Shown: positions 6,623 through 50,240, counted from the stretch's first letter. The stretch is 61,771 bases of DNA from an uncultured Gammaproteobacteria bacterium (GCA_947258425.1 CAMYIG010000002.1:3154-64924), one strand, 5' to 3'. Program-made: numbers and translations. The notes: generated from the sequence alone by a model not told the origin.

Positions 6623-7474
6623 ATGACTACCATTTGCAACGCACTCAATACGGCCGCCACCACGCTGGCCGCTCGTCATGATGCTGCAATGCTTGAGAGC
6701 GAAATATTACTCGCTTATACATTGGAAAAAACGCGCACCTGGCTATACACCTGGCCCGAGCGTGAACTGACTGCGACACAGCTCACCCGTTTCAATGCGC
6801 TGGTCGAACGGCGCCTACAAGGCGAGCCCTCCGCCTATATCACGGGTGAACGTGAGTTCTGGTCGCTGCCACTTGAGGTGACACCCGACACACTGATTCC
6901 GCGCCCCGAAACTGAGCTACTGATAGAACTCGCGCTTGAACTTATCCCGCAGGATGCGCCATGCAATATTGCAGATCTCGGCACCGGCAGCGGCGCCATT
7001 GCATTAGCACTCGCTAGCGAGCGGCCTTGCAGCCATGTTTGTGCGGTCGATGCTTCTGCGGACGCGCTCGCCGTTGCGGCACGCAACCGCGCCCGTCATG
7101 CGCTTAATAATGTCACACTATGCTGCGGCGACTGGCTCGACCCATTGTCTGAGCAAACCTTTCAGATGATCGTTTCTAACCCGCCGTATATCCGTGAAGA
7201 TGATGCGCATCTCGATCAAGGGGACCTACCGTTCGAACCCCGCAGCGCGTTGGTCGCGACCGATAATGGTCTGGATGATATTCGCAGGATTATTGCCGAT
7301 AGCCGCGCGCGCCTGGTCGCCAATGGCTGGCTGCTGATCGAACATGGCTATGATCAATCCATCGATGTCACACAACTCTTTTCACAACACGGCTATCACA
7401 ATGTCACCGCCCATCGCGATCTCAGTGGACAACCGCGCGTTGTCTCGGGGCAATCCCCCTCCACAATTAAATAA
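6623..7474 (+). CDS. prmC: Release-factor glutamine N5-methyltransferase
   Basis: Contains the SAM motif DLGTGSGAIA and the NPPY motif. I place the start at the ATG at 6623 (MTTICNAL), just after the prfA stop, rather than at the overlapping longest ORF. Confidence 0.9.
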   Translation: MTTICNALNTAATTLAARHDAAMLESEILLAYTLEKTRTWLYTWPERELTATQLTRFNALVERRLQGEPSAYITGEREFWSLPLEVTPDTLIPRPETELLIELALELIPQDAPCNIADLGTGSGAIALALASERPCSHVCAVDASADALAVAARNRARHALNNVTLCCGDWLDPLSEQTFQMIVSNPPYIREDDAHLDQGDLPFEPRSALVATDNGLDDIRRIIADSRARLVANGWLLIEHGYDQSIDVTQLFSQHGYHNVTAHRDLSGQPRVVSGQSPSTIK

Positions 7475-7478
7475 CATA

Positions 7479-7907
7479 ATGACTATACCTAAAAACATCA
7501 CCGAACAGATCAAACTCCCCCGCACACTGATCAACCAACTGATGACCCACTCACAAAGCCGCGAAGGAGAAGAGGTCTGTGGTTTTATTGCCAGTCGTAA
7601 TGGAGTACCGGTTAAAACATACCCGGTCACCAATATCGCTACACCTGTAACCAACCGTTTTGAGATGGAGCCACGGGCACAGATTGATACCATCAGAAAG
7701 ATGCGTGAACAGGGTGAAGAGATCTTTGCAATCTACCACTCGCACCCAACCTCACCTGCCGCACCGTCACAACAAGACATCAATGAGTTTAGTTACCCAG
7801 AGGCGCTGAGTCTGATCATCTCACTCAATACCAAAGGCGTACTGGAGATACGTGCGTATCGTATGCTGGCAAACGGCGCAATTGAGGTAACGATTGAAAC
7901 GACTTAA
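7479..7907 (+). CDS. JAB/MPN (JAMM) domain metalloprotease-like protein
   Basis: About 142 aa from the ATG at 7479, 5 nt after the prmC stop. The JAMM signature is visible: E..CG early on, then HSHPTSPAAPSQQD (H-x-H-x7-S-x2-D). Confidence 0.8.
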   Translation: MTIPKNITEQIKLPRTLINQLMTHSQSREGEEVCGFIASRNGVPVKTYPVTNIATPVTNRFEMEPRAQIDTIRKMREQGEEIFAIYHSHPTSPAAPSQQDINEFSYPEALSLIISLNTKGVLEIRAYRMLANGAIEVTIETT

Positions 7908-8132: not shown

Positions 8133-9251
8133 CTAATCCTCATCATCAACATCCTGTTTTTTTAGATATGCCGAAAACTCTTTAACAACATTATCAATAG
8201 GAATAGCGATACCAAAACCTTCCGAACCAATCGATGCGGTCGACATCAATTTCTGCGTATTGACGCCCAGCACGCGCCCCTCTTCATCAACCAGCGGGCC
8301 ACCACTGTTACCCGGTAAAATCTGAGTATCGGTATAAATACTGTTGTCGCGCTTACTGGTAATAATCCCGGATGTCACAAAATCCTTTAACCCCAGAGGA
8401 CTGCCCATTGCATAGACCTTCATCCCCTGCCCCACTCTACCTATATGGGTAAGATCAATAAACGGTGTGATATGTCCATCCAGTTTAATTAACGCGAGGT
8501 CATGTTCCTTACTTAACTTTATTAATTTGGCCGTTACTTTTGTGCCGCCTTTTAGCGTTACCTTAAATTGACGTGAAAATTTTGCGCTGGCAGACTTAAA
8601 ACTGAAATCAGAGTCCTGACTGGAAAGTTCACGCTTCCGGCTATCGAGCCATTTCTTCCGCTCTCGATAATTTGACTTCATCTTATTCAGGCGCTTTTCA
8701 TAGATATCATACTCTGCGTAGGCCACCTTTTTTTCGCGATCATTATAACGATCAATATCTTTTTTATAATCGCTTAACTCAGCCTCCATATTTTTGAGCT
8801 GCTCAGCCCGCTCAGCCAACTCCCGCTCAGCGACTTTAATTTCAGCCTTCGCTTCGTCAAACTTTTTATCACTCTTTTTCCACGCCTTAAACTCAGTCGG
8901 CCTGACCACATGCTTATTCGTCACAATGTAACCATCATTACTCACAAAAAAACCAGAACCGGCCCCCAAGGATGTCTCTATCGACACCACTGCCAAAGTC
9001 GTTTTTTCGATGGTAGTTGCAGGGTTAAATTTATTGGTTAACTTCTCAGCAAGATTTTTTGATACAGAACTTTTCTTCTTACCTTTATAATTTAACGTTT
9101 CAGTTTTAAGGCCCCCTTTCGGCGGCTTATCGGTAAACTGCCATTTACCATTGGCATCTTTATATTTATAAATTTCAGCCATACTGGGTAATGAAAAAAA
9201 CATTAAGATAGCCCAGCAAATGACTAACGAAACAGGAGGCTTTCTAATCAT
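8133..9251 (-). CDS. Secreted DUF4124-like domain / coiled-coil / trypsin-like (S1) serine protease
   Basis: Signal peptide, then the IYKYKDANGKWQFTDKPP motif. Catalytic residues are recognisable as TNKHVV (His), HDLALIKL (Asp) and GNSGGPL (Ser). A long, highly charged K/E-rich segment lies between the His and Asp. Confidence 0.8.
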   Translation of the reverse strand: MIRKPPVSLVICWAILMFFSLPSMAEIYKYKDANGKWQFTDKPPKGGLKTETLNYKGKKKSSVSKNLAEKLTNKFNPATTIEKTTLAVVSIETSLGAGSGFFVSNDGYIVTNKHVVRPTEFKAWKKSDKKFDEAKAEIKVAERELAERAEQLKNMEAELSDYKKDIDRYNDREKKVAYAEYDIYEKRLNKMKSNYRERKKWLDSRKRELSSQDSDFSFKSASAKFSRQFKVTLKGGTKVTAKLIKLSKEHDLALIKLDGHITPFIDLTHIGRVGQGMKVYAMGSPLGLKDFVTSGIITSKRDNSIYTDTQILPGNSGGPLVDEEGRVLGVNTQKLMSTASIGSEGFGIAIPIDNVVKEFSAYLKKQDVDDED

Positions 9252-9259
9252 GATATTGA

Positions 9260-10243
9260 TTACGATGGTAGAAACTCAATGGGATATGAAACCGTCACTG
9301 TATCAACCTCTTTTTCACCAAAATTAAACTGTTTGATACGTGACAGAATACGACGTTCAAGCTTTGAATTATTGAGTTCACTAGACACAATTTTTACATC
9401 GACAACTTCACCAGAAGGCGCAATCACGATTTCCAGCACGATCAGTCCTTTCAAGCCGGGATCTGTACGACGTTCGCGATTGTAAATCGAAAAGAGCTTA
9501 CTCTTGTTTCGATCAAAGACCATCGTGATCTCTTCTTGACTACGCATGTTTATCTTAGCCTTGAGAATATCTGCCTGCTCAATTTCAAGCGTTGATTCAA
9601 CCTCGGTATGCTGCAAGGCGGCCAGTTCTGTTTGCGTAAGCCCAACATCACTAGAAAAATCTTTTTCGTTCACTCCGCCACTACTCTGGCTAACCTTTGA
9701 CGTCAACAACGACTTACTCACCGTTGCCACTTTATTATGAGAACCTGCTGTCAGTTTTTTTCTCGATTTTGTGGTCAGCACTGTTTTAATATCAGACGTA
9801 TCCATCAAGTCTTCGAGGCCTTTGCTTAACTCCAGCAAACCACTCTTCTGCGCCTTTTCACGCGCTGCCTTTTGCTTATCAGTCAGTGGCTTTTTCTTTT
9901 CCTGCTGTTTTTTAACCAGCTTCTTTTTCAGGCTCTCTTTGGGCTTTTCAACCTTTTTTTCAACCTTGGGCTTAGGTTTTGGTTTAGGCTTGGGCTTGGG
10001 TTTAGGCTTGGGTTTTGGTAACTCTATTTTCTTTGGCTTGGGCACCTGTCCAACAAACTTTGCTATTCGATCGGGTATGACGTGCGCCTTGCGTGCCTCT
10101 TTTGGCACTTCAATCCCCTGAATATAAAACACAATGCCGAACAGTAATGCCAGAAGTACAACGGCAATGATTTTAAATTTACGATCATCATTACGACTAG
10201 TGGTGCCGGCAAGCGCAAGATCTTTATAGGCAATAGCTGTCAT
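9260..10243 (-). CDS. TonB-like energy transducer
   Basis: It has an N-terminal TM helix (IIAVVLLALLFGIVFYI), a (KP)9 plus Lys-rich spacer, and a C-terminal TonB-like domain (LIVLEIVIAPSGEVVDVKIV...VSYPIEF). It directly follows two exbD genes. Confidence 0.8.
   Translation of the reverse strand: MTAIAYKDLALAGTTSRNDDRKFKIIAVVLLALLFGIVFYIQGIEVPKEARKAHVIPDRIAKFVGQVPKPKKIELPKPKPKPKPKPKPKPKPKVEKKVEKPKESLKKKLVKKQQEKKKPLTDKQKAAREKAQKSGLLELSKGLEDLMDTSDIKTVLTTKSRKKLTAGSHNKVATVSKSLLTSKVSQSSGGVNEKDFSSDVGLTQTELAALQHTEVESTLEIEQADILKAKINMRSQEEITMVFDRNKSKLFSIYNRERRTDPGLKGLIVLEIVIAPSGEVVDVKIVSSELNNSKLERRILSRIKQFNFGEKEVDTVTVSYPIEFLPS
9965..10018 (-). repeat. Nine tandem hexanucleotide units (YTTDGG on the + strand) encoding (Lys-Pro)9 of the TonB-like spacer
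   Basis: Read directly from the sequence: cttggg cttagg ttttgg tttagg cttggg cttggg tttagg cttggg ttttgg. Confidence 0.9.
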
Positions 10244-10251
10244 AACACGCT

Positions 10252-10752
10252 TTAGCTCTTAGGCCTGGATTTTTGCACGGCGGCAAAAGATATCCTGGTG
10301 TAGTCAGCTTCACGGCATGTGCTTAGTATTTTACTGAGCACTTCGTAGGGTGTTTTTTGGTCCCCTATGATCGTGACATTACGCGCCTTCTTTTCGACCT
10401 TCGAAAACTGCGATTTACCTGCTTCAAAATTCAACTCCTCCATTAACCCAGGAATCATGGAATCCTCACTCAATGCGACTTCACTAATTGAGGCCACTTT
10501 ACGCCCTTGTACTAAAATATCTCGCCCTGTGATGGTGATAACTAGCGTCTCTTTAGGCGCTACTGCTGAAATTGAGGTGGGCAACTTAACCTCTTTACTA
10601 CTATGCAACTGCTGTACATTGGATGAACTCACTAATAGAAAAAATACCAGTATCGTAAAGATATCCATCAACGAAACAAGATTCAAACCAGGCTGTTTTT
10701 TGCGCTTGTGATGACGATCCATTCGTCTACTACGGCGTGATACTTCTTTCAT
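10252..10752 (-). CDS. exbD: ExbD/TolR family biopolymer transport protein (second copy)
   Basis: 166 aa with a basic N-terminus and a single TM helix (LNLVSLMDIFTILVFFLLV), typical of ExbD/TolR. It overlaps the upstream exbD by 4 nt. Confidence 0.85.
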   Translation of the reverse strand: MKEVSRRSRRMDRHHKRKKQPGLNLVSLMDIFTILVFFLLVSSSNVQQLHSSKEVKLPTSISAVAPKETLVITITGRDILVQGRKVASISEVALSEDSMIPGLMEELNFEAGKSQFSKVEKKARNVTIIGDQKTPYEVLSKILSTCREADYTRISFAAVQKSRPKS

Positions 10753-11267
10753 TGACTAGCCCCCACATCGATACCAGGTGTTGCCACAGCATCACCAATC
10801 GCGATATTGGGGAATAGTTCAACCGTATCAAGTGTAGCCACATTAACAACATCAGCACTTCTGACACGATCCATCACCTGAACCAGCGTCTGATACTCAA
10901 TATTAGGTTCAAGTAGTAATGTAATGTTCTGCTCTTCAGGAAAACGACTCTTAATTTCAACCAGTAATTCACTGAACGCGTTCCAGTCTGTATCGTCTTC
11001 ACTGCGCTCAAAACGCTTAATCACGCCCAGGCGACGATCCTGCACATCAAAACTCTGCTGACGAATCACCAGCTCAAGTTCAAGCTTAACCTTCTCCTCT
11101 TTCTGGGTCTGGGCATTTTTTGATGGAAGGTTAAGTTCTATGACTGTCATCCGCGAAAATACTGCGGTGACCAACAAAAACGGCACCAGAATCACCATCA
11201 AATTCATGAATGCGGTGATGTTAAGTTCTGCGGCTTCTTTGGTATGGTGTCTACGTCTTGTACGCAT
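10749..11267 (-). CDS. exbD: ExbD/TolR family biopolymer transport protein (first copy)
   Basis: 172 aa with the ExbD-like N-terminus ELNITAFMNLMVILVPFLLV. Confidence 0.85.
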   Translation of the reverse strand: MRTRRRHHTKEAAELNITAFMNLMVILVPFLLVTAVFSRMTVIELNLPSKNAQTQKEEKVKLELELVIRQQSFDVQDRRLGVIKRFERSEDDTDWNAFSELLVEIKSRFPEEQNITLLLEPNIEYQTLVQVMDRVRSADVVNVATLDTVELFPNIAIGDAVATPGIDVGASQ

Positions 11268-11372
11268 ATTGATTCCACATCTCTGTTCCGATTCTATCTC
11301 GGCTTTCTATTCAGTCCTGTCTTTCATTTTGCTGCTAACAAGGCTGTCTGCTTGTCACGGTTTCGCTATCTA

Positions 11373-11999
11373 TCAATTATGATCCTGCTCACTCACAATA
11401 TTCAGACACTTGACCGCCACCATCTCCAGCTCATCAACGAGATGCGCTGTTTTCGTCGCTAGAAAAGAGTGTAAAAACAACATGGGAATCGCTGCCATTA
11501 AACCAAATGCGGTGGTATTCATCGCCACTGAAATACTCGCAGAAAGTAGATCTGCCTTTTCGGCTGGGTCGGCTGCCGCAACCGCAGTGAAAGCCTCGAT
11601 TAATCCAATAATAGTGCCCAACAGTCCGAGCAAAGTGGCAATATTTGCGTAGGTTGCCAGATAGTGGGTACGCTGCTCTAGCTGCGGAATGACTTCCATC
11701 ATGCCTTCTTCCATGGCCGTTTCAAGATCACTACGGCGGCGCGTGTGTCCCAGCCGAGAAAAACCATAACTTAACATATGCGCCATGGGTGTTTTGTTTT
11801 GTGAGGTGATTTTTACCGCCTGGTCTAAATCATTCTTTTTCAATAACGGCACAAGGTCAGACCAGATCTTATTTGAATTTCGCTGAGTCGAACTAAGATA
11901 AAGGTAACGTTCCAGTGCGATCGCCATACCCAACGCCAGCACGGCGAGGATAGGATACATAAACGGCCCACCTGTCTGAAAGAAACTTACGACCTCCAT
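11373..11999 (-). CDS. exbB: MotA/TolQ/ExbB proton-channel protein
   Basis: 208 aa with three TM segments. The conserved C-terminal region reads ATLLGLLGTIIGLIEAF...AMNTTAFGL. Confidence 0.9.
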   Translation of the reverse strand: MEVVSFFQTGGPFMYPILAVLALGMAIALERYLYLSSTQRNSNKIWSDLVPLLKKNDLDQAVKITSQNKTPMAHMLSYGFSRLGHTRRRSDLETAMEEGMMEVIPQLEQRTHYLATYANIATLLGLLGTIIGLIEAFTAVAAADPAEKADLLSASISVAMNTTAFGLMAAIPMLFLHSFLATKTAHLVDELEMVAVKCLNIVSEQDHN

Positions 12000-12319
12000 G
12001 ACTCACTCCTTAATAAAATATGCATAACTGTCCTGAAAATTTACCGGGTAACAATACCCATGTATTGGTGACTCCACATCATTCAAACCAGTGCTCCGAG
12101 ATGAGAGCTTGTGATACTAAAACCTCACGTTGGCTGAACATAGTCTAATCTGAAACGCTTAATCAAGAAGTAGTCACGTCGGCTTACTCCCCATCAATTA
12201 AGGTTCTAACGCTCTCATACCTAAATGTCATAATCTATTTTTTATATCGACCATTCACATAGCTCCTGCAATAAAATGCAAAAATAACAATAATTGCTGT
12301 TCTATGAACAAAATACACT

Positions 12320-12643
12320 CTATTGAGGTACTGCGCCTTCTTTATCAATTTCAGGCATTACCGGTTTGATCCGTCTCTCTAACAAGCTATGAAGAATAAT
12401 ATCCTGCTCTTGAACACGATGCTTTGTTACAACTTCCTGCCACGGTACGATATAAAGAATCTGGGGTAATTCTTTGTTACCCCTGATCTGAATCCCATCA
12501 AGATTGATGACATCATTATCCTCAATCACAGCTGTAATCTCTGCTTTACTGAGTGATGATTTTGACTCTTCTGCATTAAGCGGAAAAATCATCAGTGCCA
12601 ATAAAATCATAAACACCCAACGAATATGCTCATTAACTATCAT
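12320..12643 (-). CDS. Small secreted hypothetical protein (107 aa)
   Basis: Has a signal peptide (WVFMILLALMIFPLNAEE). Its ATGA start overlaps the stop of the upstream TPR gene. I recognise no homology. Confidence 0.55.
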   Translation of the reverse strand: MIVNEHIRWVFMILLALMIFPLNAEESKSSLSKAEITAVIEDNDVINLDGIQIRGNKELPQILYIVPWQEVVTKHRVQEQDIILHSLLERRIKPVMPEIDKEGAVPQ

Positions 12644-13260
12644 TCACTCACCTCAGCCGAATTCAGTTGAGACTCAAGTTCACCAAGCCATGCCAATGTT
12701 GCCTTATCTTCATCAACAATCAGTTGAAGATAGCGCCGATAATGATGTACTGCCTTTTCAATATCCTGAAAATAGGTATCATATAATAACGCCAGATTAT
12801 AATGTGTATGCGCATGGTTCTGATCTTTCCCGAGCGCAGCAAGGTAATGCTTCAAAGCCAGAGGCACGTCACTCTTTTTATGAGCAATCAGCCCTAGTAA
12901 GTAATCAGCCACAGCACTCTGCGACTGTAATTCCAGCACTCTTTCAGCAGACTGCTGCGCACGATCCAACTCGCCACGGCGGAAACTAATCAGGCCTAGA
13001 TTCACCCACGGCAACGCAGACTGCGGGTTACGTTGAGCTATTCCGCGCAGCAATTCCTCGGCGACAGACGGTTTATCATTATTAAGCGCGTCAATCACCG
13101 CTGCCATATCCGGTTCAGCAATACCAACTGTAGAACTTTCTTGCGGCGCGCCCTTATCCATTGTATTTTGTGATGTGCCTGCACAGCCTGCCAATATCAG
13201 AACAAACATCACCAGTAGAGGTTTATTCCACATAGGCATCCACCTTAACTTCTCTTGCAT
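12640..13260 (-). CDS. TPR-repeat lipoprotein (about 200 aa)
   Basis: Signal peptide plus lipobox ILAGC, followed by about four TPR-like repeats. The start may be one of the internal Met codons (13239 or 13233). All candidate starts overlap the end of the 934-aa gene. Confidence 0.7.
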   Translation of the reverse strand: MQEKLRWMPMWNKPLLVMFVLILAGCAGTSQNTMDKGAPQESSTVGIAEPDMAAVIDALNNDKPSVAEELLRGIAQRNPQSALPWVNLGLISFRRGELDRAQQSAERVLELQSQSAVADYLLGLIAHKKSDVPLALKHYLAALGKDQNHAHTHYNLALLYDTYFQDIEKAVHHYRRYLQLIVDEDKATLAWLGELESQLNSAEVSE

Positions 13261-16027
13261 AACGTGCTGGAAATATTTTCTTTAGCCGCATAAAACTCTT
13301 TTTCGACCAGTCATTAAAGACCCCTTGATTAATATGTGCCAGGTTCGACTCATATATTTCAATCGCCTTCTCTTCAACCGGAAAGGCAAGATCCTCAAGC
13401 CCAATATCATACTGTTCCATCTCATCTTCATTAAGCCCTACGGGGCGCGCTGAACTCAACACGTCCTGACTAAATCCATAGTACATTTCGGCTATTGAAA
13501 ATAACGATTCCGACATCACTTCTGGACTGTGGTACTCATAGGCAGAGGTAAATAGTTTACGCGCCCAGTCCATGGCATCTTTTTTCTTCTTCAGGTGAAC
13601 TTTAAGTGGCTGTCGGATTTTAAGTTGATCAAACGCTGCCTTTTTTTCACGTCCTAAACGAATCGTTGCCACTGCTGCAATATGATTGGTACGATCACTC
13701 TTCGCCGCAGCATTAATTTGGTGGTCTGCTTTACGAATCTTACTTGCCCAAATATCACCGCGACGACTATCCCCCATTGCATCACTCATGAGCGTAAGTT
13801 TGTTTAAAGCCTCCATATATTGCGGAAATGGTTCCTGATGGTTTTCAACATAATGCTGATAAATTCTAAGCGCGGCAGGCATGTCACTCAAAGATTCATA
13901 CAATTCTGCCGCTTGCCACAACGCAGACATCTTCACTTCATTATCCTTCTCAATATCGTAAACTTCTTCGAGTAACTGCGCGGCATTAGCATGCTGTCTG
14001 GCATTGATATAGGCTACTGATAATATTTTAGTAACATCATCTCGGAGCTCATGCTTAGAATATTGACTACGAAAACGGCCACCGTACTTAATCACCTCTA
14101 GCCACGACTCACTCGACATTGCCAGTGTAATTGCATCATAAAGCCCTTTGGGAGCAATCTCAGACTTCCCAGCAAGTGCAGCAATACGCTCGAATTTTTT
14201 TTGAGCAGCGACATCATTACCTGCTGCTCGCTCAATTTCAGCTTGCTTATAAAGGGCTAATGCCAAGCGGTCTTCCAGTTTTTTCTTTCTTGGATCTCCG
14301 TCGATTAACGACCGGCTCAAATAGAGAAACATCACTTCAGCCTTAGCAAACTTTGACAGGTTAAAATAGGACTCTGCTTTGATCTGTCCAACGTCAAAAC
14401 GAAGATCTCTGCTGTCAACATTATCAAGTAAACTGGCAATATTAATTGCTTGTAAATATTGCTCGCCAGTAAATGCCATCTCTGCGGCACGCAAGATGAT
14501 CCTTGCAGAACGCATATCATTCGGATAAGTCCGCCTAAAGAGCAACGCATATTTAATGTATCGAGAGCCCCACGATGCTTTATTTTTTTCGTCTCTCGAA
14601 TACAGGCGATCAGACAACACTATTGTGGCGTATGCAGCACGTTGATCAACAATATCGCCAAGACTATAGGCAACAAGCTCATAATAACCAATCGCCTTAT
14701 CATAACGCTCTTCCTCAGCCAGCAAATCTGCATAGGCATAATATACCCTGTCTTCCATTGCGTTTTCAGTATAGTGAGCCAGGTAACGTTCATACCACTG
14801 GCTCGCCAACTCAAATGACTTATCCGTAGAAGTAGACTGGTACTGATTATGGTAATAACTAGCGATTGAAAGTATATTGTTACGCAGCAAAGGTTTGATT
14901 TCATTCAATACAGAATGCGGCTTTCCTTTCCAATAGCGAGCAGTGGGATGATAGCGCTGGTAAAAGCTATCTGCTGCCGCATAAAAGTTATCAAAAAATC
15001 CACTACGCTCCCACGTAGTCACTACACGAAACTCCATCTGCGGTAGATAACGCGAGTCAGGGTGGCGAGTGACAAACTGCTTCAATACAGCCACTACGTC
15101 TGTATAACGCTTCTGTCCTAAATAAATATCCGCGAGTCCAGCATAGATATGATAAGCAAAGAGTGATGTTCGTGTATTTCGAAAATAACCTGCCACCGCT
15201 TGATGATCTTCGAGGTATGAAAAATTAAGCGCCATCGCATAGAAATACGCCCTAAAATGCGCGTCTTTTTCCATCTTCCCGCCACGCTCACTATAACGAT
15301 ATGCAGCCGCCACCATCAAATCATCTACTGCTGCCTGATACGCCTGTAATTTAAATTTAGCCCATCCTCGCTTAAAATAAGCCTTTTCAAAAAACACTAA
15401 ATTATCTGGCATATCAATCACGGCACTATAACGTTTTGCCGCATCTTCATAGTCGCCGACTACAAAAGAATCCTCTGCTATTCGAAACTGCGCCTCTAAA
15501 TGAAAACGTGAGCCAGGGTAATTTTGGATTATCTGGTTAAGCGCATCTATCGATTTTTCATGCCGACCGAGTTGACTTGATATCATCGCCACACGATACA
15601 ACACTTCATCATTACTACTGCTATCTGGGTGGTCATGGAGTGACATCTCCAGTAACTGCAAAGTACGCTCTAACCGAGTTCCTTTTAGCTTTTCTCTTTT
15701 CACTTCTATCTGTTCTTCGTTCAGCGGATCGGCGTTAACAGTCGCTTTTTCAAGTTCAGCTTCCAGTTCCAGATCGGCAAGACGACTAATCGCTAGCGAG
15801 CGAAAATAATCACCTTGTTCAACTTGCTGTACATAGGAGGTATAAGCCTGGTAAATGTCGATCGGACCTTGAGCCTCTGTAGCCTCACTCGTTGACACCG
15901 GCAGCTGTTTGACTTTACTTTGCCGCTCGATATCCGACACTGTCAGTTCACGCTGTTTGAAACTACACCCAAAGAGTAAAGCTAAGCACAGGGACAACAT
16001 GATGATTTTTGTGGTATCAATCATCAC
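13223..16027 (-). CDS. Large TPR-repeat lipoprotein (934 aa)
   Basis: Signal peptide plus lipobox LLFGC, then helical repeats of TPR type along the whole length. It overlaps the upstream gene by 11 nt. Confidence 0.75.
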   Translation of the reverse strand: MMIDTTKIIMLSLCLALLFGCSFKQRELTVSDIERQSKVKQLPVSTSEATEAQGPIDIYQAYTSYVQQVEQGDYFRSLAISRLADLELEAELEKATVNADPLNEEQIEVKREKLKGTRLERTLQLLEMSLHDHPDSSSNDEVLYRVAMISSQLGRHEKSIDALNQIIQNYPGSRFHLEAQFRIAEDSFVVGDYEDAAKRYSAVIDMPDNLVFFEKAYFKRGWAKFKLQAYQAAVDDLMVAAAYRYSERGGKMEKDAHFRAYFYAMALNFSYLEDHQAVAGYFRNTRTSLFAYHIYAGLADIYLGQKRYTDVVAVLKQFVTRHPDSRYLPQMEFRVVTTWERSGFFDNFYAAADSFYQRYHPTARYWKGKPHSVLNEIKPLLRNNILSIASYYHNQYQSTSTDKSFELASQWYERYLAHYTENAMEDRVYYAYADLLAEEERYDKAIGYYELVAYSLGDIVDQRAAYATIVLSDRLYSRDEKNKASWGSRYIKYALLFRRTYPNDMRSARIILRAAEMAFTGEQYLQAINIASLLDNVDSRDLRFDVGQIKAESYFNLSKFAKAEVMFLYLSRSLIDGDPRKKKLEDRLALALYKQAEIERAAGNDVAAQKKFERIAALAGKSEIAPKGLYDAITLAMSSESWLEVIKYGGRFRSQYSKHELRDDVTKILSVAYINARQHANAAQLLEEVYDIEKDNEVKMSALWQAAELYESLSDMPAALRIYQHYVENHQEPFPQYMEALNKLTLMSDAMGDSRRGDIWASKIRKADHQINAAAKSDRTNHIAAVATIRLGREKKAAFDQLKIRQPLKVHLKKKKDAMDWARKLFTSAYEYHSPEVMSESLFSIAEMYYGFSQDVLSSARPVGLNEDEMEQYDIGLEDLAFPVEEKAIEIYESNLAHINQGVFNDWSKKSFMRLKKIFPARYAREVKVDAYVE

Positions 16028-17441
16028 GCTTTACGTCCGTATCATGCATCTGTACCAAACCAAAACGTGCTTGACTCAGGTAGCTTTGCAGGTGCTCCCG
16101 TCGCGCTAGCATATAGGCCTTCACCATCGCTTCTACGATGACGGTATAGTCCGCATAAAGCGTTCGGATTCGCTGATGAAAATCACGATCCTTTGCAAAA
16201 TGATCGCTGCGAACAAGAAAAACACCCAGGTTCTTCATATTATCAAATAGCGAACGTGTCTCTGGAAATTCACGGATCAAATTGATATCACTGGCAAGAC
16301 CAAAAATTGATTCGCTCTTAAGATCCTTATTAAGAAAATTATCGACATTTTTAATCCGATCAACATAATAATCCATCGCCTCACTATAGGCTGTCGATGC
16401 AGCCTGAAGACGCCGACTCTTCGCCAAAATATATGCTGATAATAAATAAGACTCATCCACCGCCAGATCAGTCGATTGCTTCGATCGCAATATTGATGCG
16501 TAGTTAAGCGCTCGAGCATATGACGTCTGCTTGGTCGCTGCATAAGCAACCCCTAATAACGCACGAGTAAAATAACGGCTCTTTACTGATATCCGTCCAA
16601 ATGCATCTCGTGCAGCAGGGTATTCTTCATGTTCCAGAAAGTAATAACCCGCCATCAATGTTAGATAGTCTCGTATCTCATTGGGCATCAGCAACGCTTC
16701 ATTCGCCACGTGGGCCTGCAATTGTGTGGCTTGCGCTAAGTCACCGCCCCGGTTCAACTGCGATATCATCCCGTTCAACGTTGCGTATAGCTGATACTCT
16801 GATGCGGGGGTAATTAACTGATAGTGCTCAATTGCTGCGGCATAATCCCCTTCTTGCTGTAACGAAATACCATACATAAGATTATAAAAATCCATATGGG
16901 CAGCTGAGATTTTTTTCTTCGAAATTTGCTGAAGCGCTATAAGACAAAGTTTCCATTCGTTACGTCGAAAATGGAACCTTGCAAACATATAAGCCGTATT
17001 AGTGGCCTGAAACTCTAATCCTGTTTTTTTTACATGCTGATAAAGTTCATTCGCCATCTGCCACTCATTATGATCCAGCATCAACTGGATAAAACTCATA
17101 ATGGCACCTCGCCTAACTTTCTTCAGTACCAGTTCTTTGTTTTGAACAATTTCTGCAATTGCCCTGATCGGTTCATCATTCTCAAGGAATTTACGCACCT
17201 TGATTTCGAACTGTATCGGGCCACCCAACGTCTCAAGGCGCATCGGGCCGCTAACGGTCCCCATGCTGCTTCCTTCTGGGCCGATATAATTTTGATAAAG
17301 TTCAGATGAGAGCGCACGATAACGCTGATCAAGTTGCTTGAGCTCCTCGGCGAGAGGCGGCGATATCTCGGCGCGCGACCACGTTGCAGGCAATAGACAT
17401 ACCAGCAAGAGACAAGTTGTACTCGCTATTTTCGTAATCAT
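16017..17441 (-). CDS. Secreted all-helical (TPR-like) hypothetical protein (474 aa), first gene of the island-1 operon
   Basis: Has a signal peptide (LLLVCLLPATWSRAE). It is a long ORF in an AT-rich region, where random ORFs of this size are unlikely. Confidence 0.65.
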   Translation of the reverse strand: MITKIASTTCLLLVCLLPATWSRAEISPPLAEELKQLDQRYRALSSELYQNYIGPEGSSMGTVSGPMRLETLGGPIQFEIKVRKFLENDEPIRAIAEIVQNKELVLKKVRRGAIMSFIQLMLDHNEWQMANELYQHVKKTGLEFQATNTAYMFARFHFRRNEWKLCLIALQQISKKKISAAHMDFYNLMYGISLQQEGDYAAAIEHYQLITPASEYQLYATLNGMISQLNRGGDLAQATQLQAHVANEALLMPNEIRDYLTLMAGYYFLEHEEYPAARDAFGRISVKSRYFTRALLGVAYAATKQTSYARALNYASILRSKQSTDLAVDESYLLSAYILAKSRRLQAASTAYSEAMDYYVDRIKNVDNFLNKDLKSESIFGLASDINLIREFPETRSLFDNMKNLGVFLVRSDHFAKDRDFHQRIRTLYADYTVIVEAMVKAYMLARREHLQSYLSQARFGLVQMHDTDVKRDD

Positions 17442-42095: not shown

Positions 42096-44834
42096 CTAAA
42101 ACAGCAGATTAAACCCTGTTGTTAACGCATTTCTCTCTGATCCAGCTAATGAGGTACTCTGGAATCGTAACCCAGCAAGAAACTCTTCATTTGTTAGCGT
42201 AGTTATAACGCCAAGATTAGAAATTGATTTAACATAGGCATAGTTAGCAAACACCCTCACCTTTCGGCTCATCCAGTAAGACACCCCGCCAGAAAGATTA
42301 TGTGTGCTGTTTTTCCGGTAACCGAGAAAATTAGTAAATGAGTCACGATTTTCATAACGGGTAATCGTGTACCCATAACTGACATTCCCCGTTATTCCAT
42401 TATTAAATCGATGATCAAATCTCATATTAAGCTGATGGCTACGATAAGCGTAATCGCTCGCTTCTATCTCAGTATTATCATTGCGAACATGATTGTAGCT
42501 CAACCGAACAGATGTTCGGTCACTAATACTCTGACTAATATCGCCGCCCAACCTCAGTGATTCTGAACTAAAAATTTTATTTGTCGCTGAATCAAAATTG
42601 GCCAGTGATGCTGACACAGTAAAGCCTGTCATTATTTTTTCATCTGAGAAAGGGTCAAATAGCTTCCAGAATTTAGCCCTTGTCATTATTTCAGAAAAGA
42701 AAATATCAGTAGAACTACTGCGTTGCTCGGTCAACAAACTTTGCGAAGCCCTTTTCGTATACCCGCCAACAACAGTATAACGTCCCGGTGTAATGGTTGC
42801 CGCCAGACTATTGCTTATGTTTAGAAAATCAAACTGACCCTTATGATAAGTTGAATATGTGGGCGAAGCCGTAAAACGCAGACCGAGGCTATTCTCCATT
42901 TTATATTGATAAGAAAGATTAAATGACATATCTGAGCGAAGCTCTGCTCCACTATTAGCAATCGTATCATCGGCCACAATATTATCGTCGAAGGATATTG
43001 AGTACCCCATGCCTGCAGTTAACCCTTTGATCTTTTTTTCTGTCGCAAACAACCTCGCTTTAATATCATCAGCAATTTTTTCATCAGGATTTTCCTGTAA
43101 AAGCTTACGGTATTCACTGATCGCCTTTTCTTCCTGGTTCAACCGCTCGAATGTACTGGCAATACTCAGGCGCGCACTAAAATTATCAGGTGACAATCTT
43201 ACAACATTTTCATAGGAATCCATCGCCTTTAAAAAGGACTCTTCACGAGTGTAAATAAGCCCCAGATAATAATAGGCAGTCACGTTATCAGGCCTATCAA
43301 CGATCATCTCTTTAAACTCTTTTTCCGCCAATCGAAGTCTGCCATCACTAAAATTTTTCTTTGCCATAACAAGCCGAAGCGACGCGACCAAAGCATCTGC
43401 TTGTTCAATATCAATAGTCAGCATCACGGCACGGGAATAAGCCTGGGCGGCCTCATCAAACTTAATCAGACCCTCTGCAATCGCACCTTTAATTCTAAAA
43501 ATTTGCGCGCTAAAAGGACTCAGCTCTGCCGCCGTAGATATCATTTCATAGGCTTCTTCTTTACGCTTAACCTGCGTATAAAATTGGGCTAATTTAAAAT
43601 AAGCTTCAATATCTTTAGCGTTCTTACTGATTCTGTCTAAGAGAAATGCCTCAACAACCTCCGCTTTTTCTTCTTTAGTCATTTCGCCAAAGAGGTCTTC
43701 ACCACTCATTTCTTCACCACTTATGTCCTTTAGTGTTTTTTCAGCTTCAGCAGCATACTTTGTTCCCTTTCCTTCGACGATCAGTTTTTCTAACAGGTCA
43801 ATCGCCAGGCCGGTCTGTTTCGACATCAAATACAAACCTGCAAGCTGAGATTTTGCCTCGAGATGCCCCGGCGCTAACGTTAATAATTTCTGATAACTCT
43901 CCTCAGCTGGCTTAATCTTACCAAGCTGGCTATAAGAGCGTCCCATCAACATAAGTGCAGGGATGCTATCAGGATTCACTTCGATAACCTCACTGAGGAT
44001 ATCCAGTGCATCCTGATGATTACCACTTGAAGCAATCAGGTTTGCCTCGATAAGCCCCAGTCGCTCTTTTGCCTGCTTTCCACTCGAACTCTCAGGATCG
44101 AACGAAACTACCTTTTCGAGACTTTCAATCGCCTTCGAAAGGTCTCCACGACGCTCATAGATACTTGCCAGGTTCAGATAACTTCCTGCGTGCCCTGGAT
44201 TTTGTTCAAGCACTTTGTTAAATTCGACTTCAGCCTGATCCATTTTTTTTAGAAAGAAATAGCTCAGCCCAAGGCTATATCTCATAGACGGATCATCTGG
44301 GTATTGCTGTACAAGCCGATCAAAAATAGGCACGGCCTTATCAAGGCTGCCACTTCTTGCTAGCTTCGTCGCTGAAAGATAATCTATCTTTTTATTTGCC
44401 AGCAAATAATCCTCCGAACCGGCCACAGCAAGCTCTCGTACTTTCCTGTAGGTTAATATCGCATCGTCATAAAGCGACCTGAACTCATAAGAGTATGCCA
44501 ATGATTTATGATAGCTAATACTTTCAGGCACTAACTCCACAGATCTTTTTAAATGCTCAATACCTTCATGGAAATGACCCATACGAACTAGAATCACACC
44601 TGTTTTTGCGTGCGCTTCAGCGTTGTCTTTATCGATCGCAAGTACTTTTTCAAGCAGTATCAATGCCGTAGAAAAGTCACCTCTTTCAAATTTACTCTGT
44701 ACCTCTCCAAGCAGTTTTGATGTTTGATCTATACCTTTTACAGTGCTCTGATCACCTTCTAATGCAACTGTAACAATAGGAGCCCCTGATAGCACAAAAT
44801 ACAAAAAGAAAATGATCAAGTACCGTATATTCAT
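42096..44834 (-). CDS. Secreted fusion of a long TPR array (about 570 aa) with a C-terminal OM beta-barrel (about 310 aa)
   Basis: Has a signal peptide and many TPR units. From about GLTAGMGYSISF the sequence shows the alternating hydrophobic pattern of amphipathic beta strands. It ends ...TTGFNLLF, with a terminal Phe. Confidence 0.75.
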   Translation of the reverse strand: MNIRYLIIFFLYFVLSGAPIVTVALEGDQSTVKGIDQTSKLLGEVQSKFERGDFSTALILLEKVLAIDKDNAEAHAKTGVILVRMGHFHEGIEHLKRSVELVPESISYHKSLAYSYEFRSLYDDAILTYRKVRELAVAGSEDYLLANKKIDYLSATKLARSGSLDKAVPIFDRLVQQYPDDPSMRYSLGLSYFFLKKMDQAEVEFNKVLEQNPGHAGSYLNLASIYERRGDLSKAIESLEKVVSFDPESSSGKQAKERLGLIEANLIASSGNHQDALDILSEVIEVNPDSIPALMLMGRSYSQLGKIKPAEESYQKLLTLAPGHLEAKSQLAGLYLMSKQTGLAIDLLEKLIVEGKGTKYAAEAEKTLKDISGEEMSGEDLFGEMTKEEKAEVVEAFLLDRISKNAKDIEAYFKLAQFYTQVKRKEEAYEMISTAAELSPFSAQIFRIKGAIAEGLIKFDEAAQAYSRAVMLTIDIEQADALVASLRLVMAKKNFSDGRLRLAEKEFKEMIVDRPDNVTAYYYLGLIYTREESFLKAMDSYENVVRLSPDNFSARLSIASTFERLNQEEKAISEYRKLLQENPDEKIADDIKARLFATEKKIKGLTAGMGYSISFDDNIVADDTIANSGAELRSDMSFNLSYQYKMENSLGLRFTASPTYSTYHKGQFDFLNISNSLAATITPGRYTVVGGYTKRASQSLLTEQRSSSTDIFFSEIMTRAKFWKLFDPFSDEKIMTGFTVSASLANFDSATNKIFSSESLRLGGDISQSISDRTSVRLSYNHVRNDNTEIEASDYAYRSHQLNMRFDHRFNNGITGNVSYGYTITRYENRDSFTNFLGYRKNSTHNLSGGVSYWMSRKVRVFANYAYVKSISNLGVITTLTNEEFLAGLRFQSTSLAGSERNALTTGFNLLF

Positions 44835-44838
44835 ATCA

Positions 44839-45750
44839 TCAATAATAAATATTTATTTTAAACAATGCGTGCCAGCCATTTAGATCAAGCTCCATTTTCC
44901 TGTATCCACCGCCATCTTCATCTGATAAATAACCTAGCTTGCCACTACCATCATTAACACCACCCGTCGGATAGGTAATGGATACGGTATCCTGTGGTTG
45001 AAAATCATTACTTGAATTTGCAGTACCCAGCTCGAATTTATTCAAACCAAAGGCATAACCCAGGTCCAGCCCTAGTGACAACCAGTCACGCATATAAAAC
45101 TCACCACCTATCGCTGGCTGAATCATCAAATGGCCAGTGGCCTGGGTCTCTAGGCGTGTAATTCGCTTAAACGTTTCACCTGGGTTTAGTGAGTCATCAA
45201 ACTCAAACACAAAGCTTTCACGAAAGTCGATATCAAACACTTCATTTAATAAAATACGACTATAAAAAGTGAATCGCTTGTGTCTTTTGACTAAATCTCG
45301 ACGCCACCCGAGGTAGTATTGAAGGTATCCAATACTTGCACGGCGTGTATATACCGTATCGGTGAGTCGCCCCTGAAATGGTAATGTTGTCTTTACACGA
45401 GCAGTGCTCACTCCTTCCCAGGCACTTAAACCGATTACAAAGTGATTTCTTTGGTCAACTTCCATACGAAATTCAATGCCCGCTTCCGTCCCATACGTAA
45501 TCTTTGGAAGTGGATTATCTATATCATATCTAACTTGACGTGGCCCAGCACCGTCCTGAAATAAAAGTTCACCCGATAAAGGTAAGCTTGCGCCGAGCAC
45601 TTTATCATTGATGAGCCCAAGATCTGGACTATGGATACCGAGCATCGGTGATACGCTCCACCTAACTTCGGCCATGGCTGTGCCCATCATCAAAGTAGAA
45701 ATTACAAAGACGAGTAATAAAGGCCCCTTATGAATGAAGAAATTAAGCAA
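44839..45750 (-). CDS. Putative OM beta-barrel protein (303 aa, TTG start 1 nt after the MMPL stop)
   Basis: Signal peptide MMGTAMAEV, alternating beta-strand pattern and an aromatic C-terminus FKINIYY. Confidence 0.65.
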   Translation of the reverse strand: MLNFFIHKGPLLLVFVISTLMMGTAMAEVRWSVSPMLGIHSPDLGLINDKVLGASLPLSGELLFQDGAGPRQVRYDIDNPLPKITYGTEAGIEFRMEVDQRNHFVIGLSAWEGVSTARVKTTLPFQGRLTDTVYTRRASIGYLQYYLGWRRDLVKRHKRFTFYSRILLNEVFDIDFRESFVFEFDDSLNPGETFKRITRLETQATGHLMIQPAIGGEFYMRDWLSLGLDLGYAFGLNKFELGTANSSNDFQPQDTVSITYPTGGVNDGSGKLGYLSDEDGGGYRKMELDLNGWHALFKINIYY

Positions 45751-45751
45751 A

Positions 45752-48250: not shown

Positions 48251-48285
48251 ACCTTTCCCTTATCCGCTATTCATTCCAACAGCGA

Positions 48286-49776
48286 TTAAAATGTATATTT
48301 AAACTCCATAAACACTCTGGAGTTATTGTGAAAATTACCAAAAAACTGTGCGTTCTGTACCGTTGTATCAGCAGTTGTACCAAATACCCGTCCTCGCTCA
48401 GCCTCAATACCTATCTTTGATGAGCTGCCATAAAATATATCCATGCCCGTTGCAATCTGAAAATGATCAGTGACATCAAATGTAATTTTAGGTTTTACGT
48501 AACTTTCGCGGGCATTTAGAATATTAATGTAGAGCAGTTGAAAAACCGCTGATTTTTCTGGCATCGGTTTGCGAATAAACAGGGCAAGAGAGGTGTCAAA
48601 CTCATCCTGAAAAAGCACCGGGTCATAATCGATTATGTACCATTGTGCTATTGCCGGGGAGATATCCATTCCCCAAATATTCATATCTATTCCCAATCCC
48701 CAGCGTATGTGTTTTCTTTGCAGTACGCCGTCAGAGTCCAGAAAACCATCACCATCAATATCTGTATCATTCTCCAAACCAAAGAACTTGTCGGGTACGT
48801 ATACGAATTCACCTTTAACAATATTCTCACCAACCGGCGTCACAAACGTCGCCCCGTACATATTTAACCGGGTTACGGTTGGAAAGAAAGTAGGTTCTGA
48901 GGTACTCGCTATTCTTGATGTTCTGAAAACTACAGGAAAATCATCCCACGTGTAGAAATAACTAAGCCCAACTTCGGTGCCTAGAATCTCTTTGGTATAT
49001 CTGATTCCAATTTCAGAGTTTCTTAATTTTTTTGGATCGGGTTTTGTTCTATTTGGCACATCCTGCAGTAGTTCCCATTCTGATCCAAGCGGCGCTGCTT
49101 TATGTAACTTTAAATCTGGTATCCATAAAAATTGCCAGGTCGAAGCCTCTGCATAATAATCTATCTTAGCGCTCCAAAGTGGTATGCGGTAATCAAGTAG
49201 ATCCAGCAGTATCAGCTCCCTAAAATCCATTGGATTTATTTCGTCTGTCAGACGCATGCCTTCCAGCACTCCCCAGACTACAAACTGCTTGCCCAGGCGA
49301 ATATCCATATTATCGGTAAAGATATCCAGATAGAGTTCTCTGATTTCTCCAGCAGGTGAATCTTTTTCTTGTTCAAGGTTATCAACAAAAACAAGCGGCT
49401 GTGACTCATCGCGAACTATGCGTGCTGCGATTGTTTCATAATCAAACAGGTCATACGCATGATCATAATAAGCCCAACCCGAGAAGGTTATCGATGAATT
49501 AGCCGTTGGTGAGTATTGACCACCCAGCGAAAATATATTTCTAATTTTGGTGATTGATCTTGGCTCACGAAATCGATAGGCGGTCTCATTCTTTATATAG
49601 CCATTAAATGTCCAATCATCGATAAAGCTCTTAAAATAGCCATCTTCACTATCCACTTCTTCGGCAGACGCGCACCCTATTGTAAAAGCACTTACTACAT
49701 AGAACAGAATTACAAGCGCCCTAGCTGGTAGGGCGCGACTTAACCTATGCCTTCTTGTGATTTGCATTGTTCGCAT
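48286..49776 (-). CDS. Putative OM beta-barrel protein (496 aa; tentatively DUF1302-like)
   Basis: Signal peptide, extended alternating-strand pattern and the terminal motif EFKYTF. Confidence 0.7.
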   Translation of the reverse strand: MRTMQITRRHRLSRALPARALVILFYVVSAFTIGCASAEEVDSEDGYFKSFIDDWTFNGYIKNETAYRFREPRSITKIRNIFSLGGQYSPTANSSITFSGWAYYDHAYDLFDYETIAARIVRDESQPLVFVDNLEQEKDSPAGEIRELYLDIFTDNMDIRLGKQFVVWGVLEGMRLTDEINPMDFRELILLDLLDYRIPLWSAKIDYYAEASTWQFLWIPDLKLHKAAPLGSEWELLQDVPNRTKPDPKKLRNSEIGIRYTKEILGTEVGLSYFYTWDDFPVVFRTSRIASTSEPTFFPTVTRLNMYGATFVTPVGENIVKGEFVYVPDKFFGLENDTDIDGDGFLDSDGVLQRKHIRWGLGIDMNIWGMDISPAIAQWYIIDYDPVLFQDEFDTSLALFIRKPMPEKSAVFQLLYINILNARESYVKPKITFDVTDHFQIATGMDIFYGSSSKIGIEAERGRVFGTTADTTVQNAQFFGNFHNNSRVFMEFKYTF

Positions 49777-50198
49777 ATAATTACATGGCTCTTACCAGGT
49801 ACCATTCCAAATATAACTTCATCGCCTTTATTCATCTGCTTAGTACAGCAATTGCAGACCACTTCCTTATTTAGCGTCAATTTCTCCCAACCAATGACCT
49901 CCTCGAATACATTCTTTTTCGCTTCTTCGGCCAAACCAGTTCGGTTTACCGCTTTCTCTTGCGTCAAAACCTCGGCATCGATATTTTCAATATAATCGGT
50001 CAATATATTCCTGATTAGAATTGAGACTGGGATTCCAAGTGCCTCTGCCTTCAACAAGATTCTTTCACGCAACACTTTTGGCACGCGCGCACCAAGATAC
50101 TCCTGCTTCCGCTTTTCTGCGGCCGACATCGCTTGCTGACGCATCGCATCCGCTCGTTCTGTCATCATTTCTCTCATACTGTCTCGTTTATTTTCCAT
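49740..50198 (-). CDS. Ribbon-helix-helix (CopG/Arc-like) DNA-binding domain fused to a C-terminal Cys4 zinc-ribbon-like domain
   Basis: 152 aa. RVPKVLRERILLKAEALGIPVSILIRNILTDYI fits a beta-alpha-alpha RHH fold. The C-terminus carries CNCC...CEQC. Its 3' end overlaps the 496-aa gene start by 28-37 nt. Confidence 0.65.
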   Translation of the reverse strand: MENKRDSMREMMTERADAMRQQAMSAAEKRKQEYLGARVPKVLRERILLKAEALGIPVSILIRNILTDYIENIDAEVLTQEKAVNRTGLAEEAKKNVFEEVIGWEKLTLNKEVVCNCCTKQMNKGDEVIFGMVPGKSHVIICEQCKSQEGIG

Positions 50199-50240
50199 TG
50201 CGCCTCCAAACTATTTGTCTTAAAATACCGTGAAGTATCA

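Follow-up and report, generated by a model that had tools for sequence, protein, structure and literature searches.

A Probable Stand-Alone Agl/Glt Core Complex in an Uncultured Gammaproteobacterium, with Close Relatives Embedded in Type VI Secretion Gene Clusters

Gene Cluster and Its Probable Kinship with the Agl/Glt Core Complex

The genome fragment of an uncultured Gammaproteobacteria bacterium analyzed here (GCA_947258425.1, CAMYIG010000002.1:3154-64924; 61,771 nt, hereafter the window) contains eight consecutive minus-strand genes (genes 1-8, positions 9260-17441) for tetratricopeptide repeat (TPR) proteins, a small exported protein, and a motor of one TolQ/ExbB-like subunit, two TolR/ExbD-like subunits, and a TonB-like transducer. 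These genes probably form a free-standing representative of the Agl/Glt “core complex” family, that is, an envelope-spanning machine driven by the proton motive force (PMF) and not a nutrient importer. An earlier note on this DNA had proposed a receptor-less, PMF-driven machine resembling the Agl/Glt core, and our analysis agrees with it: the layout matches that of the core complex, the transducer passes the NCBIfam model NF033768, and the cut-offs of the models for the canonical systems are missed.

The core complex was described by Luciano et al. (2011, PLoS Genet 7:e1002268; PMC3169522) as a gltC-gltD-gltE-[extra small gene]-aglR-aglQ-aglS-gltG cluster found in several Gammaproteobacteria, one betaproteobacterium, Geobacter, and Fibrobacter; its carriers include Marinobacter, Hahella, Cellvibrio, Saccharophagus, Teredinibacter, Shewanella frigidimarina, Thioalkalivibrio, Methylibium, and Geobacter. 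This is the reduced core that the earlier note had mentioned for non-gliding proteobacteria, and its architecture, published in 2011, is not new. The genes of the core (Group B) were reported to be of unknown function and not sufficient for motility, the components needed for motility being those of Group A (GltA, B, F, H, I, J, and K), and the extra small gene to have no homolog in Myxococcales (PMC3169522).

The window cluster shares with the published clusters the gene order, the single coding strand, one TolQ-like and two TolR-like genes, a TonB-like protein of the GltG type, two TPR proteins (one of about 940 aa and a lipoprotein of about 200 aa), a small gene ahead of the motor, the lack of a receptor gene, and signs of horizontal transfer, in the window an 11-point offset in GC content. 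Protein sizes are similar as well: from gltC to gltG they are 474/934/206/107/208/172/166/327 aa in the window, and 584/933/197/-/221/170/165/334 in Hahella (HCH_02626-34), 634/941/243/-/217/170/163/371 in Methylibium, and 550/939/162/-/221/176/162/321 in Marinobacter (Table S3 of Luciano et al.). In contrast to the published clusters, gene 1 of the window is shorter (474 vs. 550-690 aa), the window lineage adds a DUF4124-trypsin protease gene and a 320-nt spacer with a conserved block, and the window clade is closest to copies embedded in type VI secretion system (T6SS) loci, which are absent from that paper.

Complete clusters of the same layout were found in seven further loci (L004-L006, L080, L085, L086, and L087), with sizes of 550/931/156/116/214/171/164/327 aa in L086 and 733/1346/111/212/206/170/331 aa in L085. 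Four of these loci (L004-L006 and L087) are close relatives with 68-72% identity in gene 2 and, as in the window, with gatAB as a neighbor. The neighbors of the complete related clusters are mutually unrelated, and none of these clusters lies beside a gene for a TonB-dependent receptor; adjacency to such receptors had been named in the earlier note among the findings that would refute its proposal. Its observation that the window itself contains no receptor gene also holds: all open reading frames (ORFs) of at least 580 aa were scanned and encode TPR, PBP2, ABC, DnaG, RND, and TPR proteins. The survey of genomes with gene 2 covered the best 80 of at least 593 loci, and the protein searches (P numbers) the best 120 matches.

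Stator

Gene 5 (11373-11999; 208 aa) encodes an AglR-like protein of the MotA/TolQ/ExbB family (Pfam MotA_ExbB, 1.1e-27), and genes 6 (10749-11267; 172 aa) and 7 (10252-10752; 166 aa) encode two ExbD/TolR paralogs (Pfam ExbD, 5.9e-18 and 5.1e-17, respectively). With equivalog models, gene 5 reaches 69 bits for TolQ (cut-off 221), 46 bits for ExbB (206), and 37 bits for exbB2 (TIGR02805; 135); among solved structures, those of TolQ (35.8 bits) and of ExbB (34.5 bits) are equally far from it. Gene 6 is below the cut-off of all equivalog models; for genes 6 and 7 the scores are at most 37 bits with the TolR model (cut-off 127) and 26-29 bits with the ExbD models (123-216), including 29 bits with ExbD_2 (TIGR02804; 123). 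Because the scores are so far under the cut-offs, and gene 5 is no nearer to TolQ than to ExbB among the solved structures, the motor is assigned by sequence to the TolQR/ExbBD superfamily outside the canonical Tol, Exb, and TonB2 systems. The earlier note had set clustering with canonical iron-uptake systems against its own proposal; by score, the motor proteins, the transducer included, lie below all ExbB/ExbD/TonB, TolQRA, and TonB2 equivalog cut-offs.

The two ExbD paralogs differ at the position of the transmembrane aspartate of ExbD and TolR. In gene 7 the aspartate is retained (motif LMDIF) and is present in all nine aligned clusters; in gene 6 it is replaced by asparagine (motif FMNLM) in eight of the nine, the distant L085 having cysteine. 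The alignment took in both distant and T6SS-linked clusters, and since the Asn(Cys)/Asp asymmetry is kept across all nine, the sequences point to a TolR-like heteromer in which a single residue binds protons. The asymmetry runs parallel to the modeled situation in Myxococcus xanthus, where an AglQ/AglS heterodimer is predicted inside an AglR pentamer (PMC11761067).

Transducer

Gene 8 (9260-10243; 327 aa) encodes a GltG-like, TonB-type transducer. It passes the curated NCBIfam model NF033768, “AgmX/PglI C-terminal domain” (71 bits, above the 40-bit cut-off). The similarity to the GltJ (5.9e-11; 42 bits, cut-off 450) and GltG (1.9e-9; 37 bits, cut-off 650) models is detectable but below their cut-offs, and the protein fails Pfam TonB_C (22.8 vs. 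24.6). The AlphaFold2 model consists of a transmembrane helix (residues 19-42), a disordered linker, and a C-terminal domain (residues 230-327) predicted with pLDDT of about 90. The linker is rich in Pro-Lys and Lys and contains a (PK)n tract, and the cytoplasmic part comprises only about 20 residues, with no match to the FHA domain.

In a Foldseek search with the C-terminal domain, TonB C-terminal domains came out on top, the first being 6sly (1.8e-4), the Protein Data Bank (PDB) entry also given for the GltJ domain (PMC11761067). TolA C-terminal domains were weaker matches, and the Vibrio anguillarum TonB2 C-terminal domain matched weakly, at rank 12. These matches were obtained by fold only, as a sequence search of gene 8 against PDB yielded none. 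At least 1352 homologs of gene 8 were found; several are named “AgmX/PglI C-terminal domain protein” by the Prokaryotic Genome Annotation Pipeline (PGAP), and some are labeled “energy transducer TonB” by other sources.

Predicted TPR Scaffold

Genes 2 (13223-16027; 934 aa) and 3 (12640-13260; 206 aa, or 197 aa with a later start) encode TPR lipoproteins that are GltD-like and GltE-like, respectively. The lipobox of gene 2 (LLFGC, Ser at +2) is kept in 67 of 79 homologs and that of gene 3 (ILAGC, Ala at +2) in 56 of 70, Asp at +2 never being seen in either set. As the lipoboxes are conserved without Asp at +2, the Lol rule of Escherichia coli suggests that both proteins are outer-membrane lipoproteins. 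Genes 1 (16017-17441; 474 aa) and 4 (12320-12643; 107 aa) have signal-peptide-like N-termini without a lipobox, and neither has a match in Pfam or NCBIfam.

Relatives of gene 2 number at least 593 in a set of 185,579 species genomes, and at E<=1e-30 there are 3063 representative clusters. The second genes of L080 (32% identity), L086 (P0024, 7e-53), and L085 (P0028, 4e-36) are homologs, as is P0026 from Marinobacter (1e-45). Within gene 2, residues 143-205 are similar to the TolA-binding TPR of CpoB/YbgF (3e-16; 60 bits, cut-off 90). For gene 3, the NCBIfam GltE model gives E=1.4e-8 (34 bits, cut-off 225), and its family hidden Markov model (HMM) matches the 156-aa TPR gene at the same position in L086 (8.6e-25). 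Affiliation of the TPR proteins with an already characterized family, the other objection raised in the earlier note, did not emerge, all of them being under the NCBIfam cut-offs of CpoB/YbgF, BamD, and other characterized TPR families.

The product of gene 1, which occupies the GltC position, appears to be an exported, all-alpha TPR superhelix: relatives with 57-60% identity match TPR families above the cut-off, AlphaFold2 (pLDDT 81) predicts a solenoid of helical repeats closed by a long helix at the C-terminus (residues 421-466), and the Foldseek matches of this model are TPR superhelices. A gene 1 homolog adjoins gene 2 in 76 of 81 loci, and natural fusions of the two, of 1400-1550 aa, occur (e.g., P0224, P0226, P0246, P0250, P0293, and P0317). 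The C-terminal part of these proteins is a full gene 2 homolog, and in the two that were compared, P0224 and P0246, an N-terminal part of about 620 aa is colinear with gene 1, including the motif YL.QAR.GL; such fusions support a physical partnership of the two proteins. The C-terminal gene 1 motif YLSQ(A/S)RFGL is common to L080 and the fusion proteins and is not found in L086 or L085.

The small gene 4 is conserved at its position: its family HMM matches the corresponding small genes of L080 (6e-11), L085 (6e-6), and L086 (3e-5), and no other small ORFs; in particular, the small ORFs preceding exbB in T6SS loci were considered as gene 4 homologs and rejected by this HMM. The 107-aa protein had been compared with GltF in the earlier note. 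A GltF identity is not demonstrable, since the protein has no NCBIfam match and GltF is confined to Myxococcales and Bdellovibrionales (PMC3169522); gene 4 corresponds to the additional gene of the core complex.

Relatives Embedded in Type VI Secretion Loci

Outside the window clade, almost all of the best 80 gene 2 loci have no ExbB, ExbD, or gene 8 homolog within 10 kb. Instead, the TPR half of the cluster (genes 1-4) directly follows tssB-tssC-tssE-tssF-tssG-(small)-clpV in 46 of the 58 loci with enough flanking sequence (among L008-L078; e.g., L017, 203-13600; L019, 4557-13762; L051, 5702-13325), with a median gap of 73 nt between clpV and gene 1. The remaining 12 loci include five of the window clade (L002-L006) and four (L014, L022, L038, and L043) with vgrG in the flanks; L022, the one examined of these four, contains an hcp-vgrG-PAAR island.

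The motor half is found in T6SS loci as well. It ends a tssM-tagF-pppA-ppkA(FGE-sulfatase)-small ORF-exbB-exbD-exbD-gltG-like series in four of four sampled loci of gene 8 homologs (40-44% identity; L082, L084, L088, and L089), which come from a gammaproteobacterial metagenome-assembled genome (MAG), Teredinibacter sp. KSP-S5-2, a Galathealinum endosymbiont, and a vent metagenome. PpkA of the T6SS-linked clusters carries a C-terminal FGE-sulfatase domain. On contig JANQRI010000048 the two halves (L010 and L082) lie on either side of a single T6SS cluster, at the far ends of its two divergent arms. The split falls at the gene 4/exbB junction, where the window carries its 320-nt spacer. T6SS-embedded versions were seen in Cellvibrionaceae, Kangiellaceae, Psychromonas, and siboglinid-symbiont and vent gammaproteobacteria.

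The T6SS-embedded and window versions have the same eight proteins, including the lipoproteins and the ExbD Asp/Asn asymmetry, with identities of 33-41% for gene 2, 40-51% for gene 8, and 67-71% for ExbB. They differ in arrangement, the window copy being contiguous and placed among housekeeping genes, and the T6SS version being split between gene 4 and exbB. A neighbor-joining (NJ) tree of gene 2 places the window clade next to the T6SS-linked group as its sister, and in the NJ tree of concatenated motor proteins the window clade and the T6SS-linked motors group together in 100 of 100 bootstraps, to the exclusion of the other stand-alone clusters. Both types may occur in one genome: MAG D96SM.bin.20 (JAKISP01) has a window-type eight-gene cluster (L006) together with a T6SS-linked TPR module (L066), as coexisting paralogous systems. 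No publication connecting the T6SS to Agl/Glt, or to accessory genes of the ExbBD-TonB-like kind, turned up in a full-text literature search, an absence from the library searched that does not by itself prove novelty. Searches for locus tags of the published core clusters brought up nothing relevant.

Genes of two-partner secretion (TPS/ShlB-type, with a 2092-aa exoprotein) were noticed in L082 (13119-20948), just past the motor, and in L022 (18995-20881), just past the vgrG island; they may be coincidental contact-dependent inhibition genes.

Comparison with Characterized Systems

The window cluster resembles the M. xanthus Agl-Glt and Agl-Nfs machines in its stator, which is of the TolQR type and has a heteromeric pair of TolR-like subunits, in the AgmX/PglI-type domain of its TonB-like transducer, and in its GltD/E-type TPR lipoproteins, which probably form a periplasmic scaffold for the docking of that domain according to the model in PMC11761067. 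Unlike these machines, it has no GltA/B/H outer-membrane barrels, no GltK/CglB adhesin, and no cytoplasmic GltI/GltJ/AglZ platform; no Group A component is among the nine genes found at the locus (the eight and a protease gene described below), to which this comparison was limited, the rest of the window not having been scanned for Group A. Gene 8, in contrast to M. xanthus GltG, lacks the FHA domain and the long cytoplasmic part. The window proteins are also far shorter than those of M. xanthus (934 vs. about 1200 aa and 206 vs. about 470 aa), and the equivalog cut-offs are missed.

With Tol-Pal the cluster shares a stator of the same superfamily, the HMM scores being slightly nearer to TolQ/TolR than to ExbB/ExbD, as well as a long-linker transducer combined with a TPR partner (the CpoB-like repeats of gene 2) and a predicted outer-membrane target that is not a transporter. 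It differs from Tol-Pal in having no TolB or Pal, two different TolR-like subunits, and a TonB-like instead of a TolA-like domain. The Vibrio TonB2 system includes TtpC, a large MotA_ExbB protein, whereas the only MotA_ExbB protein of the window cluster is the 208-aa product of gene 5.

Proposed Mechanism and Alternative Explanations

By analogy with the TolQR/ExbBD structures and the modeled M. xanthus AglR5QS-GltG-GltD complex, an AglR-like ring formed by gene 5 products in the inner membrane would hold the gene 6/7 heterodimer, of which only gene 7 would carry the proton-binding aspartate. Proton flow would drive a conformational or rotary stroke passed on to the single transmembrane helix of gene 8, whose Pro-Lys/Lys-rich linker would span the periplasm, so that the TonB-type domain could dock on an outer-membrane-anchored TPR scaffold composed of gene 2 (GltD-like), gene 3 (GltE-like), the gene 1 superhelix, and gene 4 as an adaptor. 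Stoichiometry, docking, energization, and outer-membrane localization in this scheme are all inferred from these analogies. Our favored guess for the output is control or positioning, by the scaffold, of another envelope structure at the outer membrane. As the closest relatives are embedded in T6SS loci beside genes for activation by threonine phosphorylation, control, positioning, or envelope sensing on behalf of another trans-envelope machine is the most concrete hypothesis. A broader and less likely idea, put forward tentatively, is that in non-gliding bacteria the Agl/Glt core complex serves other machines of the envelope, specifically the T6SS, as an accessory engine. In this reading, its two halves close the two arms of a T6SS cluster in dozens of gammaproteobacterial lineages.

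Several points weigh against the assignment of genes 1-8 to the core complex or against the scheme built on it. The link to Agl/Glt was drawn through NCBIfam models, the published table, and the shared layout, and not through direct alignment with M. xanthus proteins; the GltG, GltJ, and GltE equivalog cut-offs are missed, as expected for much shorter proteins. The assignment of gene 1 to GltC is indistinguishable from generic TPR similarity, as the gene 1 profile gives 95% with the 733-aa protein of L085 and 48% with the 550-aa protein of L086, and the unrelated TPR genes 2 and 3 score 75-92% in the same HMM/hhalign control. The transmembrane helix of gene 8 is without the histidine of the TonB/TolA SHLS motif, and with no such histidine its coupling may differ from that of TonB and TolA. 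As to the T6SS connection, the trees are of the NJ type only, the T6SS-linked motors are not clearly monophyletic (34 of 100 bootstraps), and the 61.8-kb window contains no tssB/C/E/F/G/M, clpV, vgrG, hcp, tagF, ppkA, or DUF2169 gene (tblastn, E<=1e-3), so that a T6SS role for the window copy is an extrapolation.

The window copy could nevertheless be an accessory of a T6SS encoded elsewhere in the genome, sensing contact or damage, or positioning or inserting the T6SS membrane complex; this would be a specific version of the output proposed above and would not contradict the core-complex assignment. Both halves of the nearest relatives lie inside T6SS clusters, the motor following the TagF/PppA/PpkA activation genes; the motors of the two groups form one clade in all bootstraps, ExbB of the window is 67-71% identical to the T6SS-linked copies and 43-63% to the other stand-alone copies, and D96SM.bin.20 has both L006 and L066. 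However, no T6SS gene is present in the window, the stand-alone layout is common in many other lineages and has been described without a T6SS link, the two types in D96SM.bin.20 look like separate paralogous systems, and window-type clusters reside beside gatAB in the window, L004-L006, and L087; an accessory role of this kind therefore seems rather unlikely. Still less probable is a second Tol-Pal-like system that stabilizes or constricts the outer membrane, with gene 8 in the place of TolA and gene 2 in that of CpoB/YbgF. The higher score of gene 5 with TolQ than with ExbB (69 vs. 46 bits), the best scores of both ExbD paralogs with TolR, the CpoB/YbgF-like residues 143-205 of gene 2, and the presence of TolA C-terminal domains among the weaker fold matches of gene 8 are consistent with such a system, but the Tol equivalog cut-offs are missed widely (TolQ, 69 of 221 bits; TolR, 37 of 127; TolA, 22 of 59; CpoB/YbgF, 60 of 90), TolB, Pal, and YbgC are absent from the cluster as scanned with Pfam, TonB domains rank above TolA in the fold search, and a distinct eight-gene layout is conserved.

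An ordinary TonB-ExbB-ExbD energizer serving receptors encoded elsewhere, with the TPR genes as unrelated neighbors, would account for the Pfam matches (MotA_ExbB, ExbD, and weak TonB_C/TonB_N), for the name “energy transducer TonB” sometimes given to homologs, and for the TonB fold of the gene 8 C-terminal domain. It is very improbable, given that the ExbB, ExbD, and TonB equivalog cut-offs are missed, the TPR genes accompany the motor wherever the cluster is complete, in distant lineages too, the Asp/Asn asymmetry of the two ExbD paralogs is conserved, a receptor is found neither in the window nor in the related loci, and gene 8 passes the AgmX/PglI model but fails Pfam TonB_C. A machine for Myxococcus-type gliding or for the spore coat (Nfs-like) has the homology of the core parts to Agl/Glt in its favor, yet it is the least probable of these readings: the cluster contains none of GltA, B, F, H, I, J, and K of Group A, gene 8 lacks an FHA domain and extends only about 20 residues into the cytoplasm, and the core alone is insufficient for motility (Luciano et al., PMC3169522).

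The function of the core complex outside gliding bacteria has been a standing question since 2011, and it was argued then that understanding this complex would clarify the working and evolution of the Myxococcus motility machine (PMC3169522). To this question the window adds a member from an uncultured gammaproteobacterial clade with a clean eight-gene layout, a predicted one-Asp heteromeric stator, and a transducer with the TonB C-terminal fold, and the T6SS-embedded relatives in culturable genera (Teredinibacter, Cellvibrio, Agarilytica, and Aliikangiella) make the function testable. The distribution suggests that motors of the TolQR/ExbBD type can be attached, as reusable power units, to different envelope machines. 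If the T6SS connection is true, the TolQR/TonB-like motor, powered by the PMF and joined to a TPR scaffold at the outer membrane, would sense contact or position and activate T6SS firing, and the ancestral engine would have given rise to several machines, the focal-adhesion motor of Myxococcus among them.

Gene Organization, Spacer, and Protease

ORF analysis of the window confirmed nine minus-strand ORFs within 8133-17441, at the coordinates given in the earlier note, with Pfam matches to TPR families (genes 2 and 3), MotA_ExbB (gene 5), ExbD (genes 6 and 7), TonB_C/TonB_N (gene 8, weak), and DUF4124 and Trypsin_2 (gene 9). The junctions from gene 1 to gene 9 are, in order, -11, -38, -4, +320, +105, -4, +8, and +8 nt; the overlaps and long gaps reported earlier are exact, except that there are two 8-nt gaps and not one. 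The -11 and -38 overlaps hinge on the choice of start codons for genes 2 and 3: the public annotation of the same DNA (MAG GCA_945787585.1, CALZIG010000114) uses later starts, giving proteins of 933 and 197 aa and shortening both overlaps.

The two halves of the cluster are separated by its only long spacer (12000-12319; 320 nt), which aligns across five relatives. This spacer contains the block TGAATGGTCGATATAAAAAA at about 12235-12259 (minus strand), invariant in these five relatives, whose proteins are about 70% identical, and a hairpin followed by a T-run at 12045-12060 (minus strand), about 45 nt ahead of the exbB start. The spacer could be a candidate internal promoter or leader of the motor half. 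Support for a consensus fold or covariation is weak (three sequences), and no Rfam match was found in the spacer or in the cluster as a whole. Promoter and terminator scans over the cluster were at chance level (22 vs. 20.9 and 11 vs. 8.0 expected, respectively).

Gene 9 (8133-9251; 372 aa) encodes an exported protein with a DUF4124 domain and an S1C serine protease domain, HtrA-like but without PDZ. A coiled-coil insert of about 110 residues, matched by NCBIfam SMC-like models, lies between the His and the Asp of the catalytic triad (H114/D251/S316); an exact look-up of the protein sequence returned no record. The gene follows gene 8 only in the window and L087, and is absent from this place in L004-L006, L080, L085, and L086. 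Because of this absence, gene 9 is a lineage-specific addition, passenger or accessory, outside the conserved unit; the nine-gene operon of the earlier note thus stands as nine ORFs, but the conserved unit comprises eight genes without the protease.

Genomic Surroundings

The cluster is unbroken between a small JAB-domain ORF, located downstream of prfA/prmC, and gatBA. Its GC content is 43.5%, about 11 points below that of the flanks (54-55%), and GC at third codon positions is 0.36-0.50, compared with 0.57-0.62 in the flanks. The AT shift described earlier was reproduced to the letter, positions 14401-14460 having exactly 30% GC.

A second low-GC island (42096-57000, minus strand; 43.0% GC) encodes another envelope system, with a 912-aa TPR protein, a 303-aa protein without matches, an 832-aa RND/MMPL protein, a DUF1302 protein, and two LolA_like/DUF1329 proteins. 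It was considered as a T6SS or as a partner of the cluster and rejected on its gene content, no link being detected. The JAB-domain ORF mentioned above (Prok-JAB, JAB/MPN; 7344-7907, plus strand), which lies between prmC and the low-GC cluster, has an intermediate GC content of 48% and may mark the edge of the low-GC island.

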